Assembly: GCA_043754515.1 (NCBI GenBank)
Contig: JAYUUO010000264.1
Span: 1 to 24,636 of the forward strand
From: Armatimonadota bacterium
GTDB lineage: Bacteria; Armatimonadota; Armatimonadia; Armatimonadales; Armatimonadaceae
Length of the DNA: 24,636 nucleotides
Direction: 5' to 3'
Within the stretch, counting starts at the first letter, position 1. Every line of letters starts with the position of its first letter. Shown one piece after another: positions 3,346 to 21,515 of the stretch. The notes under the pieces were generated by a model, which saw only the letters and a list, made by a program, of their open reading frames with translations, was not told where the DNA came from and did no database searches. The position numbers were made by a program, and so were the translations under genes.

Positions 3346-4380
3346 ATGGGAAAACTTTTCGACTACCTGTTCAATAACGACATCGCCCATAACGTCATCC
3401 CGATCGCGTTCCTCGGGTTGCTTTTCTACGCCCTGTTCGCGGCGGGAAGACAGCCCCTCTGGGCGGAAGCCTACCGCCGGTTGCGCCGAAACAGCGTGGC
3501 AATATTTGCCATCGCCATCATCGGCGTCTACGGCATGGTCGCGACTCTTGACAGCCTCGGCACGACGGACAAAAAATCGCAAAAGTATGTAACGTTGCTC
3601 GACCGGATCGCGGGGCGAGAGCAGGAGCGAACCTACTCCAAGCCGATGGCCAGTATGACGACCGGTGAGCCGAAGCCGCAACGACTCAAGCAACCCGGGA
3701 CACACCTGATCGGCACCGATGGCACGGGGCAAGACGTTTTCTACCGGATGCTGAAAGGGGCGCGGACGGCGTTCATCATCGGCGGCCTGACGAGCCTGAT
3801 CGCGACGCCGTTCGCGCTTCTTTTCGGCCTCGCGGCGGGCTACTACGGCAAGACGGTGGACGACCTCATCCAGTATGTCTACACCGTGCTGTCCTCAATC
3901 CCACCAATTCTGCTCCAAATCGCGCTGGTGCTGGTTCTAGGACGGGGCATCGAAAAGATATGTTTCGCGCTCGGCATCACCGCGTGGGTCGGCCTGTGCC
4001 GCCTGGTGCGTGGCGAGACGCTAAAGCACCGCGACCGGGAGTACGTGCGCGCGGCGAAGGCGTTAGGCGTGTCCGACTTCCGGCTACTGACGCGCCACAT
4101 CCTGCCGAACCTGCTCCCGGTTGTGATTATCTCGGTCACGCTCGGGTTCTCGGGGTTCATCCTCGCCGAACCGATCCTGGCGTATCTCGGTATCGGCGTG
4201 GACGCGGACATGGGTTCGTGGGGGAACATGATTGACGCGGCGCGCGACGAACTGGCGCGCGACCCGGTGATCTGGTGGAACATCACGGCGGCGTCTGGTG
4301 CCCTGTTCGTGCTGGTGCTCGCGTTCAACCTGCTCGGCGACGCCTTGCGCGACGCGGTTGACCCGCGTTTGCGAAGCTAG
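3346..4380 (+). CDS. oppC: Peptide ABC transporter permease (OppC/DppC-like)
   Basis: HLIGTDGTGQDV, EYVRAAKALG, RHILPN, FNLLGDALRDAVDPR motifs. Confidence 0.93.
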   Translation: MGKLFDYLFNNDIAHNVIPIAFLGLLFYALFAAGRQPLWAEAYRRLRRNSVAIFAIAIIGVYGMVATLDSLGTTDKKSQKYVTLLDRIAGREQERTYSKPMASMTTGEPKPQRLKQPGTHLIGTDGTGQDVFYRMLKGARTAFIIGGLTSLIATPFALLFGLAAGYYGKTVDDLIQYVYTVLSSIPPILLQIALVLVLGRGIEKICFALGITAWVGLCRLVRGETLKHRDREYVRAAKALGVSDFRLLTRHILPNLLPVVIISVTLGFSGFILAEPILAYLGIGVDADMGSWGNMIDAARDELARDPVIWWNITAASGALFVLVLAFNLLGDALRDAVDPRLRS

Positions 4381-5240: not shown

Positions 5241-6362
5241 TTGTCCGAACCGCTTTTATCCGTACAAAACCTCAAGACCTACTTCAAAACTCAGCGCGGC
5301 CTCGCAAAAGCCGTGGACGGCGTGTCGTTCGACATCGAGCGGGGCAAGACGCTCGCCATCGTCGGCGAGTCCGGCTGCGGCAAGTCCATTACGTCGCTGT
5401 CGCTCTTGCAACTCGTCCCCGAACCCGCCGGGTATATCGCGGGCGGCAAGGTCGTGTTCGAGGGGCACGACCTACTGGATCGCACCTGGGAGCAGATGCG
5501 CTCGGTGCGCGGCAGGGACATCGCCATGATCTTCCAGGAGCCGATGACCAGCCTGAACCCGACATTCACTATCGGCAACCAGATCACCGAGGCGATGACG
5601 ATCCACGGCAAGAATGCAGGCGAGGCGTGGGCGCGGGCGGTTGACCTGCTCCACCGGGTCGGGCTACAGAACGCCGAGGCGACCCTGCGCCAGTACCCGC
5701 ACGAACTCTCCGGCGGGATGCGCCAACGCGTAATGATCGCCATCGCGCTCGCGAACCGCCCCAAACTCCTGATCGCGGACGAGCCAACCACCGCGCTCGA
5801 CGTCACGGTGCAGGCGCAGATCCTCGCGCTGATCCGGGAGGTCCAGCAGGAGATGGGCATGTCGGTGCTACTGATCACGCACGATCTAGGGATCGTCGCC
5901 GAAGTCGCCGACAACGTCTGCGTCATGTACGCCGGGCAGATCGTGGAGTACGCGCCGACCGCCGACCTGTTCCGTGACCCGAAGCACCCGTACACGAAGG
6001 GCCTGTTCGCGAGCCTCCCGGCGCGGAACCGGCGCGGTCAGGACCTCGCCACATTGGAGGGTATCGTGCCCGACCCGACCGAATGGCCCGCCGCGTGCCG
6101 GTTCGCGGAGCGGTGCGCGTTCCGCTGGGAGTCGTGCGTGACCATCGCGCCGAAACTGTTCCCGCCGGACGCGGATCGCCCGGTGCGCTGTCATTTGTAC
6201 GATCCTGCCATTCCCGGCCGCCCGAACATCGCCGCCGCGAGAGAGGCGGGCCTGACGGGCGACGTTTCCGCCGATGTCGCGGGCGCGACTGCGGGGGACT
6301 CGGACGTGGCGGTGCCTGAATCCCGGAACGGCGCGGCGGCGTTCGATAGTCCGGTAGAATGA
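5241..6362 (+). CDS. oppD: Peptide ABC transporter ATP-binding protein (OppD/DppD-like)
   Basis: Walker A GESGCGKS, ELSGGMRQR, LIADEPTTALD, HPYT and C-terminal CRFAERC motifs; TTG start. Confidence 0.93.
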   Translation: MSEPLLSVQNLKTYFKTQRGLAKAVDGVSFDIERGKTLAIVGESGCGKSITSLSLLQLVPEPAGYIAGGKVVFEGHDLLDRTWEQMRSVRGRDIAMIFQEPMTSLNPTFTIGNQITEAMTIHGKNAGEAWARAVDLLHRVGLQNAEATLRQYPHELSGGMRQRVMIAIALANRPKLLIADEPTTALDVTVQAQILALIREVQQEMGMSVLLITHDLGIVAEVADNVCVMYAGQIVEYAPTADLFRDPKHPYTKGLFASLPARNRRGQDLATLEGIVPDPTEWPAACRFAERCAFRWESCVTIAPKLFPPDADRPVRCHLYDPAIPGRPNIAAAREAGLTGDVSADVAGATAGDSDVAVPESRNGAAAFDSPVE

Positions 6363-6381: not shown

Positions 6382-6981
6382 ATGTCTATGACATTAACAC
6401 CGCCTGTGATCGGCAACGCGTTCGCCACCGCGCCGAACACCCCGCGCCGCATGCCACTGTCCAGGGAGCAGTACTCACTCCTCGGCAACGCCGGGATGTT
6501 GCCGGAGCGTTGCGAACTGATCGACGGGGAAATAATTGAAAAATTGTCACAGAGTCCTGACCATACACAATCTATGCGCCGGGTCGAGCGGGTCATGCGC
6601 CGCCTTTTCGGCGAAGAGTTCGTCTACTCGCAAACGCCGCTGGTACTCGGAGCGCATGACGAACCGGAACCGGATGTTTTCGTGACTACTCTGCCGGAAG
6701 CCACGTTCCTGCAAAGACAGCCGACCGCCTCCGACTCTTGTCTGTCCATCGAAGTGTCCGTAAGCACCCTCGACTTCGACACGGGGCGGAAGGCGTCCCG
6801 GTACGCTCTCGCGGGTGTCGCCGACTACTGGGTCGTGGACGTAGAGAGCCGACGTCTGCTCGTCTTCCGCGATCCGGCGGGCGGGGCGTACCCCGCGCCG
6901 CTGGAGTTCGATGAGACACAGATCGTGTCATCGCTCGCCGCGCCGCTCGCCGCTATTTCCGTGGTAGACTTGCTACCATAA
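6382..6981 (+). CDS. Uma2 (DUF820) family putative endonuclease
   Basis: ELIDGEII, EPEPDV, IEVSVSTLDFD, K..RYA.AGVADYWVVDV motifs. Confidence 0.9.
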   Translation: MSMTLTPPVIGNAFATAPNTPRRMPLSREQYSLLGNAGMLPERCELIDGEIIEKLSQSPDHTQSMRRVERVMRRLFGEEFVYSQTPLVLGAHDEPEPDVFVTTLPEATFLQRQPTASDSCLSIEVSVSTLDFDTGRKASRYALAGVADYWVVDVESRRLLVFRDPAGGAYPAPLEFDETQIVSSLAAPLAAISVVDLLP

Positions 6982-6999: not shown

Positions 7000-7569
7000 A
7001 TGTCCATCACGCTGACCCCCGCCATATCGCGCAAACACTTCACCCGGCCCGAGTATCACTTCCTCGCGGACAACGGCTTCTTGCGGGACGCCCGGTACGA
7101 ACTGCTCGGGGGAGATATTCTGGTCCAGATGCCACAAAAAGAGCCACATGGCAGCCTCGTGATGGCTATCGTCTTCCTGTTCGCGCGGCTCTTCGGCGAG
7201 GAGTTCATCCGGTGCCAGATGCCGGTCGTGCTGTCGAATGACGGCGAGCCGGAGCCGGATGTCGTGGTAACGTCGTCATCGCGCTCCGTGTATCAAACGG
7301 GGGGTATACCGACATCGGCGGATGTCCGGCTCGTTCTCGAAGTGTTCGTTTCCACGCTCCCCTACGACGTCGGCGAGAAGGCGGAGAAGTACGCGCAGAG
7401 CGGGGTAGCCGAATACTGGGTCGTGGACGTAGAGAGCCGACGTCTGCTCGTCTTCCGGGCACCGTCGCCGACCGGCTACGCGGTAACCGCCGTATTCACG
7501 GACGCCGATGCCGTGTCACCGCTCGCCGCGCCGCTCGTTGCTATTCCCGTAGGAGATTTGTTGCCTTGA
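7000..7569 (+). CDS. Uma2 (DUF820) family putative endonuclease, tandem paralog
   Basis: ELLGGDI, EPEPDV, LEVFVSTLPYD, KYAQSGVAEYWVVDV motifs. Confidence 0.9.
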   Translation: MSITLTPAISRKHFTRPEYHFLADNGFLRDARYELLGGDILVQMPQKEPHGSLVMAIVFLFARLFGEEFIRCQMPVVLSNDGEPEPDVVVTSSSRSVYQTGGIPTSADVRLVLEVFVSTLPYDVGEKAEKYAQSGVAEYWVVDVESRRLLVFRAPSPTGYAVTAVFTDADAVSPLAAPLVAIPVGDLLP

Positions 7570-13404: not shown

Positions 13405-14244
13405 CTACCGCGCGACCGTCTCCCCCGTGCGCCCGATGGGCACGAAGCGCGGGCGGCGGGCGACGCCGAAGTTCGGCGGGCGCGGCGGTGTCGGTGTCGC
13501 GCCGATCTTGTCGCCGCCGACCACGGGGTAGATCAGCCGGTCGGGACGCTCCCACCAGCCCGGCTCGTTCGTGGCGTGGTTCGTGACGCGCCCTCCCGCC
13601 CCGATTTCGCACGCCACCTCCGCGACCACGATGGGGCGCTGCGTCGCCAGTAGGTCCCCGCCGAGGTCGAATACGCCCCGCTCGTACGATCCCTGGCCCT
13701 GCGCCATCAGCGAGTCCCGGTCGAACGCGCCGAGCATCGCTCATACCGTCACACCGCGCACCTCCGCGCCGTCATCCCGCGCCGCGAGCGCGGAGTCCCA
13801 GACGTATCGGAGCCAGCGCGCCTGCTCGAACTCACAGTCGCACCCGAGATGAACCTCGGTGACAGTGACTGGGATTTGATAGCGGCTGTACGCCTCCAGG
13901 ATCAGGGTGCGCGGTTCCGCGAGGAGCCCGTCTCCTGAAACGCGCACCGCTTCGATGTCCGCGTATCGCTTGTGGCTGTTATCCCCGTGTGTGTGGGCCG
14001 GATACCAGTTCATCAGCTCGTCCGTCCACCGCCAATCGGCATCCGATAGGTTGCCGGTCGGACAGACCCTCTCCCACGAGACAGGGTAGCGCACCGTGGT
14101 CACGCCGAGTCCCGCCACCGCGTCGAGATCACCTATTCGTTCCGTATGCCCACAGGCGCGGAACTGGTCATAGAAGTCGTCGCCCAGGCGCGCTAGCGAA
14201 CATTCTAACCCGCCCCAGAGCGCGGGATATTGTTGTCGTTTCAA
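13405..14244 (-). pseudogene. GH1-like glycoside hydrolase remnant of the family found with glf and glycosyltransferase genes
   Basis: LWGGLECS, RYPVSWE, YADIEAVRV, VTEVHLGC, GWWERPDRL motifs; large internal deletion near 14010-14025; TGA at 13741-13743 at an expected Trp (VTV*AMLGAFD). Confidence 0.8.
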
Positions 14245-14277
14245 AAGTGTGTCCCCCTTAACTGGCTCGGGGCGTCA

Positions 14278-15463
14278 TTACCCATGACCCGAAGTGCCGA
14301 TATGGGCACTACTTTTTTCCACCGTCGCGTCGAGTAGTCCCGCCATTCGCGCGACTATATTGTCCCAGGTGTTCGCCTCGGCGTACCGGTCGCCCCGCTC
14401 GAGGCGCGCGGCGTCACCGTCAGATAACGCATCTTCACACGCCTTGGCAAACGCTTCGGGCGTGTCCGCCACGCGGGCCGTGTCGCTGTAATGCTCCACG
14501 ATGTCTGGAATCGGTGTGGATACTACGGGCCTTCGCGCGGCATAATACTCCAGCGTTTTCGTCGGGGAAAGGAAACGCGTCGTGTCCGAGAGCGCGAACG
14601 GGACCAGGGTTACGTCCGCGCCCTCTAAATAGCCGGGTAACTGCTCATAAGAACGTTGCCCCGTGTAGTAAATGTTACGCCGCCGGAGCAGATCCGCCTC
14701 CGTAATTTTGGCTAAGGCACCTAACATCACGATGCTCCAGTCGGGGTGCGCGTCCGCGACCGCCGCGAGGTTGTCCCAGCCCATCCGCTCGTCAATCACG
14801 CCGTAGTAGAGCAGGCGCGGCTCCGGCAATCTCGCCATATCCTCAGGGATTATCGTCGCCGGGTCTAACGTCTGGCGGAAATGCGCGATGTCTATGCCGC
14901 TGTTGAACTGATGCACATTCGCGTGTATGCCCTTCCGCGCGGCATACAGGGACGGCCCCCCGGTGAACATCACGTCGCTCGCTGTCATCAGTTCCGCCTC
15001 CTTCGCCTTGAGCGATGGGGGGCGTTTTTGAAGCTTCCCAGTTCATCCACACAGTCGTAGCAGACGGTGAGCGGGTCGTACATGCGCCGCGCCCCGATAG
15101 CGGCGGGCGTGTAAAACCAGTGAACGAGATGCTCCCAGCACGGATTACTCGCGCGGAGTCCAGCGATCAGTGCGTCCAGTGGCCGCGTCCACGCCGCCCC
15201 ATTTTCTTCGTCAATCAGCGCGTCCGCCCCCGCGCCGCCGGTGTACGGCTTCAGCATGGGCGTCGCCACCAGCAGATGCGGCGTCACCGCGCCTGCTCCA
15301 GTCGTGGCTCGGTCTCGCCTTCCGGGAGCGGCAGGGCGTCCTCCAGGAAGACGACCGGATGCCGTTCCGAGAGCCGACTCATCACGTGTTGCGGACGTTG
15401 CCACACGAAGTTCCAGCGCAGGTGGCAATGCACCATAATCCCATAGGAGGGCGTGGCACCCAT
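14278..15463 (-). pseudogene. GT-B fold glycosyltransferase, frameshifted
   Basis: HLRWNFVWQRPQHVMSR, then WFYTP / YDCVDEL, then FTGGPSLY / YYGVIDER / FLSPTKTLEY occur in changing frames; shifts near 15290 and in the C6 run at 15017-15022, possibly also near the start. Confidence 0.85.
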
Positions 15464-15466
15464 GGG

Positions 15467-15991
15467 TTACCGGTCTTCCCCTACACCAACCGGAACCGAC
15501 TTGACGTTCGCGACCACGCCGCTTCGCGCCCTCATGGGGACGGTCACCGTCGCCAGCGAGGGGGCTATCACCGTCGCGGGCGTCGGCTTCAGCCCCGCGC
15601 GCAGTAGATCGCTTACTGGGAGCGGCGCGTCTACCGTGGTACGCGCGGCGTCCCGCTTGCCGGTTATCTTGTCGAACGTCGCGAGTGCCTGCCCGACGAC
15701 CTGATCCATATTATAGTACTCACACGATTAACACCGTCTTACCGGCCTGCGAGGCGAACCGCTCCACGAGAACACTGCCCGCGAAGCCGGCACCGACTAT
15801 CAAGTAATAGGAGTTACGTGGTTCGTTAAGAACGCGGGTTGAAACCCACGTCATCGGCAAAACAAGTACAGCCAAAACTTGTTTTGACGATTGCCTGTCC
15901 AGACTACTTCGTAGCCGGACGTCGGGTACCCGCTTGCGGGTGGGACGGATGGATTTTGGCGTCGCAAACGCGCAACTCCTATCAGTGCCAT
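15467..15991 (-). pseudogene. glf: UDP-galactopyranose mutase remnant
   Basis: N-terminal YLIVGAGFAGSVLVERFASQAGKTVLIV abuts, out of frame near 15720, the C-terminal YYNMDQVVGQAL; the MITE sits 10 nt after ATG 15991 (RBS GAGGA). Confidence 0.85.
15808..15981 (-). mobile_element. MITE-like element, copy 3 (174 bp, inverted)
   Basis: TIRs TAGGAGTTGCGC / ACGTAACTCCTA; body nearly identical to 9054-9195. Confidence 0.88.
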
Positions 15992-16054
15992 AAGGTTCCT
16001 CGGTGTATTCTACGGCGTCCCCGTCGCCGACGCCGACGCGCCAGTCGCCATGTT

Positions 16055-16699
16055 CTACGGCTTGCCCGCCGCCCACGCTGCCGTCACAGTACGCAACGTC
16101 GGGAGCGGCGTCTGCCATAGCCACGCGACCGTGAGCCAGAAGCCGGATAGCACCGCGCTTTCGTAGTTGCCGTTCGCGTCGTGCATTCGCGCGGCGTATT
16201 TGCCTGTCAGAGAGTCGCGGACGTAAAACTCTGCCGTTCGGATCGCCGGATCAACTATCCAGTATTCGGTGACGCCGCAGGTTTCGTACTCGGCGAACTT
16301 AATCTGCCGGTCGCGCTCCTCGCTCTCGGGCGACACGATCTCAATGGCGAGGTCGGCGGGGCCGTCCAGGTAGTTCGGCAGGATGCGGACGACGTTCCGC
16401 GTCAGCACTACCGCGACATCCGGCTCGCGCCCCCGGTTCACCGCTTGCAGACGCATCTGGAACGGGGCGTAGATCACCCGCCCCGTTCCGCTGTCCTCGG
16501 TAAATGTTCTCAGAAGCGTCACCAGAAACGCGCCGATTTCGGTGTGTGTATAGCTGACCAAAGAATCCCGCCTCCGTATCTTGCCGCCTTCCCACTCCGC
16601 AAACTCGCCCTCGGTCTGCCGCAAGAACTCATCATAGGTCACGTGCGCGGGTGACGTGACGTTCCCGTCCGCGCTCTTCGCCCAAATTGCCGTCGCCAT
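16055..16699 (-). CDS. Uma2 (DUF820) family putative endonuclease, different subfamily from the tandem pair
   Basis: AEWEGG, REPDV, GPADLAIEIVSPES..RD..IKFAEY...GVTEYWIVDP motifs. Confidence 0.9.
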   Translation of the reverse strand: MATAIWAKSADGNVTSPAHVTYDEFLRQTEGEFAEWEGGKIRRRDSLVSYTHTEIGAFLVTLLRTFTEDSGTGRVIYAPFQMRLQAVNRGREPDVAVVLTRNVVRILPNYLDGPADLAIEIVSPESEERDRQIKFAEYETCGVTEYWIVDPAIRTAEFYVRDSLTGKYAARMHDANGNYESAVLSGFWLTVAWLWQTPLPTLRTVTAAWAAGKP

Positions 16700-16886: not shown

Positions 16887-18194
16887 CTACGTATGATACT
16901 CCGCGTTGATTTTCACGTAGTCGTACGAGAAGTCGCAGGTGTAGAACTGCGCCTCGCTCTCCCCCGCGCCCAGGTCAACGTGGATGGTCAGCTCCTTGAC
17001 CGCCATCGCCTTCGAGAGCGCGGGCGCGTCGAACCTCGTCGGGGTGCCGCCCGCGAAAATGCACGTTCCCGCGAGAGACGCCGTCGCCCGTTTCGGGTCG
17101 AAACGCACCCCGGCACGGCCCGCCGCCGCTAGAATACGCCCCCAGTTCGGATCGTTGCCGAACAGCGCGGTCTTGACCAGCGGCGATTCGGCTATGGTTT
17201 TGGCGACTTTGCGGGCGTCCGCGACCGTTTCCGTACCCGTCACGCGCACCGTAACCAGCTTCGTCGCGCCCTCGCCGTCGCGGGCTATCTCTTTGGCGAG
17301 ATGAATGCAGACGCGAGTCAATGCGCCCGCGAATACCTGGTAGTCCTCCCCGCTCGCGGCGGTAATCGCGGCGTTGTTCGCCGCGCCGGACGCTAGCACA
17401 ATACACGAATCGTTGGTCGAGGTGTCGCCGTCTACGGTCAGGCAGTTGAACGACACGGCGACCGCTTCGATCAGCGCGGCATGGAGCGCGTCGTGGGTGA
17501 TCACGGCGTCCGTGGTCAGAAAGCCGAGCATCGTGGCCATATTCGGCGCGATCATGCCCGAGCCTTTCGCCATCCCGCCGACGGTGACGACCGCGCCGGA
17601 CGCCGGGAGCATGAAGCGAACCGCGTACTCTTTCGTAAACGTGTCCGTAGTCAGAATCGCCTCGGCGGACTCGGTGGCGGCTCGCGGCGTCGCGGCGAGT
17701 AGAGTCGCCGCCTCGCGAATCCCGGACTCGACAATCGCCATCGGGAGCAACGTGCCGATAACGCCGGTAGACGCCGTGAGCACGTTCTCGGCGGGGATGC
17801 CGAGCGATTGCCCCGCGATCCGCGCCATCTGCTCATTGTCCGCCTCGCCGCGCTCGCCGTTGCCCGCGTTCGCGTTCCCCGCGTTCACCACGATAGCGAT
17901 GGGGGAGGCGGTCACTCGCTCGCCATCCGAACTGGCGTCGCGGAACAGCGTTTCGTTGCGGGTGACGCAGGGCGCGCGAACGACGTTGGTCGTGAACACG
18001 CCCGCCGCCGTCGGGGACGCGCCCGAGTCCGCGTCGGCAATTAAGACGCAGATGTCGCGCCGCTTGCGCTTTATCCCGCACCGCACCCCGGCGACGCGAA
18101 AGCCGCCCGCCGCGACCACGCCCCCGCCGCACTCTTCATAGGGAGGGAATGTCGTCCCCGCATGTCCCGCGCCCGATTCCGTGCTTACGGCCAT
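16887..18194 (-). CDS. argJ: Bifunctional ornithine acetyltransferase / N-acetylglutamate synthase
   Basis: GVFTTN, NAGNANA, STGVIG, KGSGMIAPNMATML autocleavage motif, DGDTSTND, DGEGATK, DPNWGR; the ATG overlaps the argC 3' end. Confidence 0.96.
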   Translation of the reverse strand: MAVSTESGAGHAGTTFPPYEECGGGVVAAGGFRVAGVRCGIKRKRRDICVLIADADSGASPTAAGVFTTNVVRAPCVTRNETLFRDASSDGERVTASPIAIVVNAGNANAGNGERGEADNEQMARIAGQSLGIPAENVLTASTGVIGTLLPMAIVESGIREAATLLAATPRAATESAEAILTTDTFTKEYAVRFMLPASGAVVTVGGMAKGSGMIAPNMATMLGFLTTDAVITHDALHAALIEAVAVSFNCLTVDGDTSTNDSCIVLASGAANNAAITAASGEDYQVFAGALTRVCIHLAKEIARDGEGATKLVTVRVTGTETVADARKVAKTIAESPLVKTALFGNDPNWGRILAAAGRAGVRFDPKRATASLAGTCIFAGGTPTRFDAPALSKAMAVKELTIHVDLGAGESEAQFYTCDFSYDYVKINAEYHT

Positions 18195-19249
18195 AATCCC
18201 GCGCCCTCCAATCCAGCGGTCTCTCCGAAGCCGCACATCAGGTTCATGTTCTGCACCGCCTGACCCGCCGCGCCTTTGACTAGGTTGTCAATCACCGATG
18301 TTACGATAACGGTACCGGTGCGCGGGTCAACGGCGGCGCAAATATGGCAATAGTTCGAGCCGAGGACATCCTTCGCGCGCGGCTGATCGCCCGCGTCGCG
18401 CACCACGACGAACGGCGCGTCCGCGTATCGTTCGCGCAAATCGGCGGTGATCTCAGTCGCCGTCGTTTGCGGGTTGATCAGGTGTCCGTAACACGTCGAG
18501 AATATCCCGCGCGTCATCGGCACCAGATGGGGCGTGAACGTCACCCGGACCGGCTCGCCCGCAACGGCTGATAGCGACTGTTCGATCTCGGGGATGTGTC
18601 GGTGTGTCCCGCCGACGCCGTACGCCGCAACCGATTCGTTCGCCTCGGAGAACTTGAACGCGAGGTCGCTCTTCGCCCGGCCCGCCCCGGAAATTCCCGT
18701 CTTGGAGTCTATGACGATGCCGCGCGGTTCGATTCGCCCCGAACCGAGTAGCGGCGCGAGCGCGAGAACTGCCGCCGTGACATGACAGCCGGGATTCGCG
18801 ATCAGCCGCGCCTCCCGGATCGCGTCCTTGTGGTACTCCGGCAGTCCGTAAACGGTTCGGGAGTCGGCGAGCAGGTCGGACGCGGAGTGTGGCATCTTGT
18901 AAAACGTTTCCCACTCCGCGATGTCCTTCAGGCGGAAGTCTGCGGCGAGGTCAATAACACGTCTGCCGTCCGCGAGGAGTTTGGGCGCGGCGACCATCGA
19001 GACGCCGTTATCCTGAGCGAGGAACACGAGTTCCGCGCCCGCGACCCCCGCCGCTTCGATGCCGCCGTGTTCGCAGACCAACTCGCCGACGCCCGAACCG
19101 GCAAGCCCCGCGAACACGGATTTGAGCGGCTTCCCAGCGAACGTTTCGGACACGACGCTGACCACCCTGACATGGGGATGGCGCGCGAGTAGCCGCGCCA
19201 GTTCCCCGCCGACATACCCGCTCACCCCGACTATAGCGACCGATATCAT
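18185..19249 (-). CDS. argC: N-acetyl-gamma-glutamyl-phosphate reductase
   Basis: GVSGYVG, DLAADFRL, YGLPE, ANPGC, SGAGR, HRHIPEI, FTPHL, DNLVKGAAGQAVQNMN; RBS GGGGAG before ATG 19249. Confidence 0.96.
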   Translation of the reverse strand: MISVAIVGVSGYVGGELARLLARHPHVRVVSVVSETFAGKPLKSVFAGLAGSGVGELVCEHGGIEAAGVAGAELVFLAQDNGVSMVAAPKLLADGRRVIDLAADFRLKDIAEWETFYKMPHSASDLLADSRTVYGLPEYHKDAIREARLIANPGCHVTAAVLALAPLLGSGRIEPRGIVIDSKTGISGAGRAKSDLAFKFSEANESVAAYGVGGTHRHIPEIEQSLSAVAGEPVRVTFTPHLVPMTRGIFSTCYGHLINPQTTATEITADLRERYADAPFVVVRDAGDQPRAKDVLGSNYCHICAAVDPRTGTVIVTSVIDNLVKGAAGQAVQNMNLMCGFGETAGLEGAGLWP

Positions 19250-19305
19250 TCGTTTTACTCCCCGCCCCACCACTTCGACAACGTAATCTGAAACTCTATC
19301 CAGAC

Positions 19306-19354
19306 AAAAAAAGCCGGACGCAACATCCCCGTCAATCGGTCGTTGCGTCCGGCT
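19306..19354 (-). terminator. Intrinsic terminator 2 in the argC leader
   Basis: Perfect 13-bp stem AGCCGGACGCAAC/GTTGCGTCCGGCT, 17-nt loop, U7 tract on the minus strand, about 55 nt before the argC ATG. Confidence 0.8.
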
Positions 19355-19388
19355 CCCCCAAACTCTTCGGCTTCGTAATGAAATACAC

Positions 19389-19468
19389 AAAAAAAGCCCG
19401 CCGCGACACACCGCCTTCTACGCCGCCGCTCGGTTGCAACGAGCGGCACGTACGGGGGTCACGGCAGG
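19389..19468 (-). terminator. Attenuator-type terminator 1 in the argC leader
   Basis: CCUGCCGUGAC (19468-19458) pairs with GUCGCGGCGGG (19407-19397; 11 bp, 2 GU), encloses an inner stem GCCGCUCG/CGAGCGGC, and is followed by C-U7. Confidence 0.6.
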
Positions 19469-19481
19469 GTCTCTTCGCGAT

Positions 19482-19574
19482 TTAGGCTTCGCGCGTGCCC
19501 CGATCCGTGATCCCGATACGGGAACGACGGTCGCGGCGGCGAAGCGAACCGCATGATTCGCTCTTGTAGAACAT
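19482..19574 (-). CDS. Putative arginine-rich leader peptide MFYKSESCGSLRRRDRRSRIGITDRGTREA
   Basis: ATG 9 nt after the -10 box; 8 Arg in 30 aa, 6 of them within 8 codons; lies between the promoter and the terminators upstream of argC. Confidence 0.7.
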   Translation of the reverse strand: MFYKSESCGSLRRRDRRSRIGITDRGTREA

Positions 19575-19583
19575 AGTTTTGCT

Positions 19584-19612
19584 AGTATAGCCCTTGGCGG
19601 GGGGATCGTCAA
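19584..19612 (-). promoter_or_regulatory. Sigma70-type promoter of the argCJ leader
   Basis: TTGACG (19612-19607), 17-bp spacer, TATACT (19589-19584). Confidence 0.85.
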
Positions 19613-19628
19613 GGCACTGGTCCGCCGC

Positions 19629-21515
19629 TCACTTTCTCGATAGCTCGCGCGACTGGATCGCCTTCAGCCGCGCCGTATCGAACTTCGGCTCGCGCCCGAA
19701 CGTATGCAGGCCGTTCTCCTCGGGATATACGTCCGTCAGTTGCGTGTAGCAGTAGCCGAACATGTGCGCGTTGTTTATCAGGATGTGGCATGTCGCCTCG
19801 AAGCGGTAGTAGAACTCATCCAGAGTCTGGGGGTCCGCGCCGTAGCCCCAACTGCTCTTGCGGTCGAGCGTGTTCTCCGTCGCCGACTTCGCGGCCGCGC
19901 CCGCCTCCCAGCGGAAGCCCCCGAACTCACTCACGAAGTAGGGCTGCCCCCGGTACGGCGTAGACCACCGGGCGACGGTGCTGGCGGACGAGCCGGTCGG
20001 CGTGCGCGGGTTCGTGAACGCCGCCCAATCCGGCCCCGCGACATGGCGTGCGCGGAACTTCTCCAAGCCCGTAGCGAAGTCCTTCTCCTTGATGTAGTCG
20101 TGCGAGTCGTACACGTCCGTGTCGCGGACGCGGTGCGAATAGCCGGACGTGTCGAGTATCGGGCGCGTTTTATCGGCGGCCTTCGCGGCGAGGAACAGGG
20201 CCTGCGTCGCGTCGTCGAGCGTGGTAACGCGGTCGTGGAACGGTTGCCACGTCTCGTTGAGCGGGCACCACCCGACGATGCACGGGTGTGAGTAGTCGCG
20301 CTCCAGTGCTTCGAGCCACTGCGCCGCGTAGGTGATCCCTGGCTGTTGGTGGTCAGAATTCGGCCCGTACCCGCCGCAGCCCCAGTCGGCGAACTCGCCC
20401 CAGACGAGGTAGCCCATCCGGTCGGCGTGGTATAAGAACCGCTCCTCGAACACCTTCTGGTGCAGGCGTGCCCCATTAAACCCGGCGTCGAGCGAGAGCT
20501 GAATGTCTCGTATCAGGGCGTCGTCGGTGGGCGCGATCATCACGCCATCGGGGTAGTAGCCCTGATCCAGCACCAGCCGCTGGAAGATCGGTTCGCCGTT
20601 CAGAAGCATGGCCTGGCCCGCGATGGCCACGCTACGTAGCCCCGCGTAGCTGAGTACCCTGTCCGCGACGACGCCGCCCGCGTCCACGAGCGTTATCTCA
20701 AGGTCGTACAGGAAGGGGTCCTCCGGCGACCATCGCCGCCGCCGCCGCTCGGAGATGGCGAGTTCGAGGCGCGGCGCGAAGTCGAGGTCGGCGCGGACCT
20801 CGGACTCGCAGACGGTTCCCGCGTCGTCCGACAGCACCGCCCGCAGGCGGTACCCCCGCGCGTTGTTCGTGAGCGGCTGCTCGACGGTGAGGCTGCCCGC
20901 GCCCAGGTTGGGCGTTATACACGTCCGTTTGAGCGCGGCGGGGAGCGGAAGTGATTCGAGCCACACCGTCTGCCAGATGCCGGTGGTGCGGGTGTAGTGG
21001 CACCCGGCGGGGTGTAGCGTGGTGACCTGTTTGCCGCGCGGCTGGGGGGCGCGGGCCGTGTCGCGGGCGCGGACGACCACTGTCACCGCCTCGCCGCCCC
21101 CGGCGACGCCTAGCAGGTTGCACGAGAATGGCGTGAAGCCGCCCCGGTGTCGCCCGATCTCGACCGGCAGCCCGCCGGTGCGCTCCGAGATAGCCCATAC
21201 CGTGGCGTCGTAGTCTACCGCCCCGAAATGGATCACGGTCTCGCGCCCCGCCCAGTCCGCGGGCGGCGTCATCGCGCGGCGGTACCAGACGGCGTGCATG
21301 AAGTCCTTGTGCCCGACGCCGGACAGGTCGGACTCCGGGCAGAAGGGCACCCGTATCGCACGGTCGAACGCGGCGCGAGCGGTGTTGAGGCCGCGCTCGA
21401 CGCCGCTGTCCGCGCTGTCAATCTGGAACTCCCATTCGCCGTTCAGGCAGACATAGATGGGGACCCGGTCGCGGTCAACGCGCGTGAACCGCGGGCGGGG
21501 GTGTCGGTCATCAAT
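19629..21515 (-). CDS. Glycoside hydrolase family 2 (beta-galactosidase/glucuronidase-like); start codon anomalous, possibly a pseudogene
   Basis: HPRP.F.R, LNGEWEF, HFGAVDY, TGIWQTVWLE, LDQGYYPDG, RLHQK, HPCIVGWCPLNE, SEFGG, YTQLTDV..E.NG. The frame is open to 21515 (ATT), while the TTG/ATG after RBS AAGGAG are out of frame. Confidence 0.85.
   Translation of the reverse strand: MDDRHPRPRFTRVDRDRVPIYVCLNGEWEFQIDSADSGVERGLNTARAAFDRAIRVPFCPESDLSGVGHKDFMHAVWYRRAMTPPADWAGRETVIHFGAVDYDATVWAISERTGGLPVEIGRHRGGFTPFSCNLLGVAGGGEAVTVVVRARDTARAPQPRGKQVTTLHPAGCHYTRTTGIWQTVWLESLPLPAALKRTCITPNLGAGSLTVEQPLTNNARGYRLRAVLSDDAGTVCESEVRADLDFAPRLELAISERRRRRWSPEDPFLYDLEITLVDAGGVVADRVLSYAGLRSVAIAGQAMLLNGEPIFQRLVLDQGYYPDGVMIAPTDDALIRDIQLSLDAGFNGARLHQKVFEERFLYHADRMGYLVWGEFADWGCGGYGPNSDHQQPGITYAAQWLEALERDYSHPCIVGWCPLNETWQPFHDRVTTLDDATQALFLAAKAADKTRPILDTSGYSHRVRDTDVYDSHDYIKEKDFATGLEKFRARHVAGPDWAAFTNPRTPTGSSASTVARWSTPYRGQPYFVSEFGGFRWEAGAAAKSATENTLDRKSSWGYGADPQTLDEFYYRFEATCHILINNAHMFGYCYTQLTDVYPEENGLHTFGREPKFDTARLKAIQSRELSRK

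Follow-up and report, generated by a model that had tools for sequence, protein, structure and literature searches.

The window, by which we mean the whole stretch of DNA analysed (24,636 nt, with all coordinates being positions in it), comes from a genome of 5.13 Mb that is 92.7% complete, referred to below as G000. The nearest ArgC relatives with a name are assigned to Armatimonadetes, Armatimonadales and Capsulimonadaceae, which puts G000 probably in Armatimonadales. On the minus strand it carries argC and argJ, preceded by a promoter, a short uORF and a series of segments with the potential to pair in alternative ways. The features are as follows.

19612-19584, minus: sigma-70-type promoter TTGACG-17-TATACT (-35 TTGACG at 19612-19607, -10 TATACT at 19589-19584)
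19574-19482, minus: leader uORF of 30 aa, near-leaderless, with its ATG (19574) 9 nt past the -10 box and no Shine-Dalgarno motif
19541-19518, minus: Arg control codons, which are segment 1 (RRRDRRSR; codons 12-14, 16, 17 and 19, all CGC or CGU)
19490-19520, minus: segment 2, pairing with segment 1 (anti-antiterminator) or with segment 3 (antiterminator)
19449-19469, minus: segment 3, which pairs with segment 2 or forms the 5' arm of terminator A
19389-19410, minus: segment 4 and U7, the 3' arm of terminator A, with segment 5 as alternative partner
19306-19354, minus: terminator B, which is segments 5:6, a perfect 13-bp stem and U7
18185-19249, minus: argC, N-acetyl-gamma-glutamyl-phosphate reductase (TIGR01850, 391 bits)
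16887-18194, minus: argJ, ornithine acetyltransferase/N-acetylglutamate synthase (TIGR00120, 437 bits), overlapping the argC stop

The original prediction had described the promoter, an ATG 9 nt downstream of it and a 30-aa ORF with RRRDRRSR, and all of these are in place; the downstream genes, which it took to be argC-argJ, are confirmed as such by the profile matches. The promoter is the sole promoter-like site in 19000-20200, where a consensus scan would be expected to give 0.1, and it begins 17 nt past the stop of an upstream glycoside-hydrolase-like gene. Judging from the promoter sequence, transcription probably starts near 19577. The uORF has six Arg within eight codons, and at least five Arg in 6 codons arises in 0.4% of shuffled G000 leaders (2000 trials). 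Its peptide matched no Pfam family. Ahead of argC there is a GGGGAG Shine-Dalgarno sequence, near 19263-19258.

Elsewhere in the window, a gene for a Uma2-family putative endonuclease (16055-16699, minus) follows argJ after about 190 nt, and two ORFs on the plus strand that look similar to Uma2 by eye (6382-6981 and 7000-7569) interrupt a peptide ABC transporter operon. The minus strand from 13405 to 16124 carries a series of short ORFs for sugar metabolism that appear to be fragmented, among them a glycosyltransferase-like ORF (14278-14988) and a weak glycosyl hydrolase family 1 piece (13741-14244).

Distribution of the leader and choice of Arg codons

Among 61 genomes of the order Armatimonadales, 58 gave an argC match, and upstream DNA was taken from 58 argC loci in 57 genomes. 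One genome has two loci, and those left out are one genome with a C-terminal fragment and the three without an argC match. A promoter followed by a uORF with an Arg cluster is present in all 58 upstream regions, from 20 genera and both families, the uORF being within 1.5 kb of argC at 56 of the loci and at 1.5-1.6 kb, behind inserted genes, at the other two. The original prediction had looked to related genomes for a conserved Arg-codon cluster upstream of argC, and this is what we find, at 58/58 loci and in frame in 56/56 leaders, with the proviso that the genomes are related by descent and the counts are therefore not independent events.

In the relatives, too, a TTGACN-like/-10 pair precedes the uORF. 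Reading on from the -10 box, 51 of the 56 leaders have an ATG, and in all 51 the first one shares the frame of the Arg cluster; the other 5 have an in-frame GTG. The spacing from -10 box to start ranges from 6 to 48 nt in the 56 leaders and is 9 nt in 26 of them, and no Shine-Dalgarno motif was flagged before the uORF in any of the 56. There are at least four Arg in 6 codons in 53/56 leaders, as against 3.6% of shuffles. The conservation of start and frame in 56/56 leaders suggests that the uORF is translated. Within the peptide only the Arg cluster is common to the leaders (RRxR or RRRxRR in most), the N-terminal part being variable in sequence and length and the first Arg of the cluster falling at any point from codon 7 to codon 18.

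In several genomes of the sister family there are one or two extra ORFs, acetyltransferase-like or methyltransferase-like by eye, between the putative attenuator and argC, and from their position these would fall under the same control.

For other families of the phylum we looked at 58 argC loci, a hand-picked subset of 263 genomes with an argC match, and found an Arg leader with a terminator at 5 of them (4/8 in one family and 1/2 in another). One of 69 further ArgC loci, mostly from Desulfobacterota with a few from Armatimonadota, was scored as an Arg leader; it has mixed codons and was not counted.

The argG, argH and argB genes of G000 are on other contigs (C93, C36 and C27). No Arg leader was seen ahead of argB, argG or argH in G000, nor at 30 argG loci, and control thus appears to sit at argC-argJ. 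In some relatives argC and argG share a strand, with argG 7-13 kb downstream. The sole other promoter-ORF-terminator unit in G000 with the Arg core motif is on contig C153 (plus strand, near 6086), where an ORF of 33 aa that includes a cluster of three Arg codons lies ahead of a membrane-protein-like ORF.

With regard to other regulators, the genome search for argR that was part of the original prediction gave no PF01316 match in G000 or in any of the 71 genomes of the order (search control 9/14), and PF02863 was not found in G000, for which 92.7% of the genome is represented. However across the phylum just 5 of 301 genomes have PF01316, and its absence from the order is phylum-wide background that says little, since it is rare also in lineages where no Arg leader was found. 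There was no Rfam match in the window at gathering score, nor in 4 relatives at E <= 1, and no match to T-box RF00230 in the window. T-box matches are present on other contigs of G000, at C229:8476-8725 and C241:10186-10422, with scores of 96.7 bits (above the cut-off) and 54.3 bits (below it), and it would thus seem that T-boxes and leader peptides are used side by side.

G000 has other candidate leaders. On contig C36 (minus strand, near 45888) there is a candidate alanine leader attenuator, near-leaderless like that before argC, with a promoter, a start 6-9 nt past the -10 box and an Ala-rich uORF of 20-45 aa. It precedes genes for an Lrp-family regulator and a PRK07682-like aminotransferase, a pair that we take to resemble alaR-alaT of B. 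subtilis. This candidate Ala leader is present in 4/4 genomes of the genus of G000 (with a terminator called in 2) and at 0/26 other loci of the order. On contig C48 (plus strand, near 3481) a Thr/Ile-rich ORF of 28 aa follows a promoter-like site and resembles ilv/thr leaders; the ORF behind it is not ilv-like by eye.

In the case of codon choice, the 237 core Arg codons of the 56 leaders are 147 CGU, 87 CGC and 3 CGA, with no CGG and no AGR, CGU and CGC together making up 234 of them. Arg codons outside the core in the same uORFs include CGG and AGR, and in the long ORFs of G000, which are a crude ORF set, CGU is 11.8% and CGG 28.1% of Arg codons. CGU is 62% of the control codons as against 12% of genomic Arg codons. 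Among the 23 alignable sister-family leaders, the first and second Arg codons always end in U or C, at positions outside helix 1:2, and the last core Arg codon is CGU in 23/23, even though the base opposite its third position is a G, with which C would make the better pair. Base pairing could account for part of the CGY bias.

The tRNA-Arg anticodons of G000 are GCG (two), UCG (two), CCG, CCU and UCU, with no ACG found at the default threshold. Contig C219 has an array of 14 tRNA genes that includes one GCG and one UCG tRNA-Arg. Across the order the GCG type is found in 63/71 genomes and the ACG type in 7/71, and no TadA was found above the cut-off in 41 genomes. By the standard wobble rules CGU and CGC are both read by one isoacceptor with a GCG anticodon. 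Since GCG and no ACG tRNA-Arg was found, one isoacceptor, with about 57% of Arg codon demand falling on it, would by those rules read the control codons, and tRNA-Arg(GCG), beside which no second CGU/CGC reader was found in G000, is most likely the species sensed. In the available text of PMC1183508, selective-charging theory predicts that attenuators use the codons of the most starvation-sensitive isoacceptor, and control codons that are read by one isoacceptor fit that prediction as it is given there.

Helices, terminators and folding models

The original prediction laid out four segments, pairing as 1:2, 2:3 and 3:4. Segments 1 to 4 do fold in G000, each of the three helices better than shuffles (z = -3.8, -2.9 and -5.2 respectively), but the layout was incomplete for this genome, as it missed the second terminator, terminator B (19354-19306), before argC. 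The z values for terminator B and for 4:5 are -7.5 and -0.6, and the entire leader folds with z = -4.9. Duplex energies in kcal/mol are -28.7 for 1:2, -27.0 for 2:3, -21.8 for 3:4, -16.8 for 4:5 and -25.6 for 5:6. The 1:2 helix is a probable pause hairpin. Terminator B is located between the first U tract and argC and is cleaner than terminator A, which was not called by the consensus scan and is atypical in closing over a long inner helix. G000 and 21 sister-family leaders each have a tandem pair of U-tailed hairpins. In G002, a relative from the same genus as G000, no U tract follows the 3:4 hairpin, and terminator B is retained, with a G-C pair replaced by A-U.

Covariation was assessed in the 23 alignable sister-family leaders, which are not of the leader type of G000 itself. 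The original prediction had also called for covarying stems, and in this set compensated pairs were found both in 2:3 and in 1:2 plus the terminator. For the 2:3 helix 97.8% of positions are paired and 4/16 pairs are compensated, a level reached by 0/500 shuffles, with slid controls at about 50%; for 1:2 plus the terminator the figures are 97.3% paired and 4/27 pairs compensated, reached by 6/500 shuffles. The structures were derived from the same sequences, and the paired percentages are thus inflated, while the compensated pairs are not. Segment 4 against segment 5, in 21 sister-family leaders, is 90.4% paired with 0/9 pairs compensated, and the 4:5 duplex is stronger than the shuffled mean in 23/23 sister-family leaders, with p <= 0.05 in 8/23. 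In G000's own family 23 leaders were searched automatically for 4:5 and 2:3 partners, with results that were mostly not significant.

In the folding models the ribosome is a mask and the transcript ends short of the 3' arm of terminator A. Such truncated-transcript snapshots were used because folding of full-length leaders at equilibrium is insensitive to ribosome position, mostly returning the terminator wherever the ribosome is placed. The 5' arm of terminator A was set by hand in G000, and the multi-locus survey was limited to arms past the uORF stop. In the G000 model the probability that segment 3 pairs with upstream sequence is 1.0 for an A site at each of the first five Arg codons, about 0.4-0.5 at codons 20-22 and 0.0 at the stop. 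Modelled antitermination in G000 is at its peak with the ribosome on the Arg codons, and the masking of strand 1 by the ribosome has, in these models, the effect that the original prediction envisaged.

In the G000 model the fifth Arg is the sole ribosome position at which helix 4:5 appears (0.40-0.59). In the model of G002 a stalled ribosome gives 2:3 together with 4:5 (4:5 at 1.00), 4:5 also appears with the ribosome at the stop (0.58-0.92), and 3:4 forms only with the ribosome at the stop. A relay through 4:5 is the likeliest way past terminator B, and we regard it as plausible and not as established.

Free G000 RNA has 1:2 at lengths of 80-120 nt and shifts to 2:3 at equilibrium by 130-170 nt. 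As untranslated RNA prefers 2:3 at equilibrium (0.62-0.98 in G000, with a mean of 0.82 in the sister family), termination without translation must depend on 1:2 folding first.

The folding survey found a usable terminator past the uORF stop at 58 of 62 other loci, with none usable at 4. The 5' arm of the terminator is more sequestered with the ribosome at Arg than at the stop at 39 of the 58 loci, equally so at 18 and less so at 1. Switching was seen at 15/29 loci in G000's own family as against 22/26 in the sister family, and the 18 flat cases are mostly long leaders of G000's own family.

Mode of action and alternative readings

The four features by which a classical attenuator is recognised in sequence are all present before argC-argJ, these being the uORF, the cluster of codons for the end product, an intrinsic terminator, and the exclusive 1:2, 2:3 and 3:4 helices. 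On this and on the folding models, we think it very probable that the element is a classical ribosome-mediated leader-peptide transcription attenuator that senses the charging of Arg-tRNA. The ribosome would load at the 5' end of the mRNA and trail RNA polymerase. With Arg-tRNA plentiful it would reach the stop and mask segment 2, allowing 3:4 (terminator A) and then 5:6 (terminator B) to form, and transcription would end. With Arg-tRNA scarce it would stall on the CGU/CGC codons with segment 1 masked, and 2:3 would form and prevent terminator A. A less certain step is that the freed segment 4 would then pair with segment 5 and block terminator B, as in the his leader.

The same hairpins could also relay a stall due to arrest by the nascent peptide, which would sense free Arg, ornithine or citrulline, or would through an R-X-R (+X+) motif respond to macrolides or ribosome stress. 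Among arrest peptides, SpeFL and the arginine attenuator peptide of fungi sense a free metabolite in this way. A non-Arg residue does interrupt the cluster in nearly all leaders to give R-X-R, and an Arg-Leu-Arg motif marks a hflX uORF candidate in the available text of PMC8632094. However codon X in the sister family begins with an invariant G that is part of helix 1:2, its remaining two bases being unpaired and variable, and RNA pairing can thus explain X. The conserved peptide upstream of the stall site that is seen in AAP, SpeFL and TnaC types was not found in these leaders, the N-terminal residues expected to occupy the exit tunnel being unconserved in both sequence and length. Lys is found within the core, in place of Arg, only once in 63 windows, and CGG, which an arrest peptide would tolerate, is at 0/237 core codons. 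The genes downstream are moreover for arginine synthesis. We consider peptide arrest very unlikely.

It is also conceivable that the leader is a general sensor of translation speed or coupling that is not specific for Arg, with slowing near codons 9-17 giving read-through and the Arg codons being a by-product of GC-rich helices. CG-rich stems do read as Arg in one frame, and the modelled window covers codons 9-17 whatever the residue. But such a sensor would not account for a reading frame kept in 56/56 leaders despite many spacings, nor for the restriction to U or C at the third positions of the first two Arg codons, outside helix 1:2, and the constant CGU at the last, where C pairs better (23/23 sister-family leaders in each case), and we give it even less credence than arrest. 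Least probable of all is an element acting at the level of RNA or DNA (a riboswitch, protein-binding site or operator) in which CGYCGY-N3-CGY reads as Arg by chance. As one would expect of such an element, nucleotide conservation in the core is strong and extends to synonymous positions, but the start codon and frame are conserved as well, Rfam gave no match (the window at gathering score and 4 relatives at E <= 1), and the motif with promoter, short ORF and terminator, which might recur if it were a regulon site, is absent at argB, argG and argH of G000 and at 30 argG loci.

Comparison with known systems

Repressors and T-boxes have long been seen as the means by which arginine is controlled, and the comparative survey of Lopatovskaya (2010) reportedly lists no arg attenuators. 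Our search of the openly available literature found no Arg-codon attenuator of arginine biosynthesis genes, and the view in the original prediction that this is an undescribed form of arg control holds for the literature covered. Term look-ups gave none in the available text of PMC2965389, PMC8632094 (with one supplement), PMC2659441, PMC13236596, PMC4833913, PMC5737381 and PMC5314783.

It is a wider claim that arginine has its own class of leader-peptide attenuator, universal in Armatimonadales, near-leaderless, tuned to tRNA-Arg(GCG) through wobble-read CGU, and often with two terminators and a his-like relay, and for this we see the case for and against as evenly balanced. If the leader before argC is indeed an attenuator, arginine would join the amino acids whose synthesis is under classical attenuation, and the regulation of the pathway entry steps would be explained in an order with no detectable ArgR. 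It would also provide a natural test of the selective-charging theory, as described in the available part of PMC1183508, in a lineage that reads CGU/CGC by a GCG anticodon. The element, of about 270 nt, is portable and so testable in a laboratory host, and is a possible reporter of Arg-tRNA.

There are several known systems with which the argC leader can be compared, each taken here as it is described in the available text of the source cited. In E. coli a small ORF upstream, argL, affects expression of argF (10.1101/511675). It too is a small ORF at an arg gene, but it overlaps the argF start in another frame, a stop codon in argL raises expression, and that text describes neither an Arg run nor a terminator for it. 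The whiB7 uORF has a polyarginine stretch for which a role is only speculated (10.1101/2025.10.10.681568). In S. aureus the rbfL uORF senses arginine limitation through slow decoding of Arg codons (PMC13009471); it differs from the argC leader in using the rare codons AGA/AGG, in blocking a downstream RBS and in lowering a biofilm regulator, and is thus translational and of opposite sign. In Salmonella orf34/speFL consecutive Arg codons make speF expression respond to arginine (PMC6386406), but there the target is ornithine decarboxylase, the ORF has a conserved domain, and control is by Rho, RBS unfolding and RNase G, not by an intrinsic terminator. The leaderless polycysteine sORFs of mycobacteria are attenuators that control the operon behind them (10.1101/834739), and have a leaderless run of a single amino acid like that before argC, though for cysteine and in a different phylum.

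The closest likeness is to hisL of Salmonella, and also to trpL, leuL, thrL, pheL and ilvL, all of which share with the argC leader a short uORF, a run of end-product codons over the first of a set of exclusive helices, and an intrinsic terminator. The argC leader differs from hisL in being under Arg control, in being near-leaderless with no Shine-Dalgarno sequence, in having tandem U-tailed hairpins (G000 and 21 others), and in having no homology to the Rfam leader families. In the Salmonella his leader A:B and E:F oppose B:C and D:E, as given in the available text of PMC4046918, and as far as that description goes the scheme matches the six-segment layout proposed here for the leader before argC.
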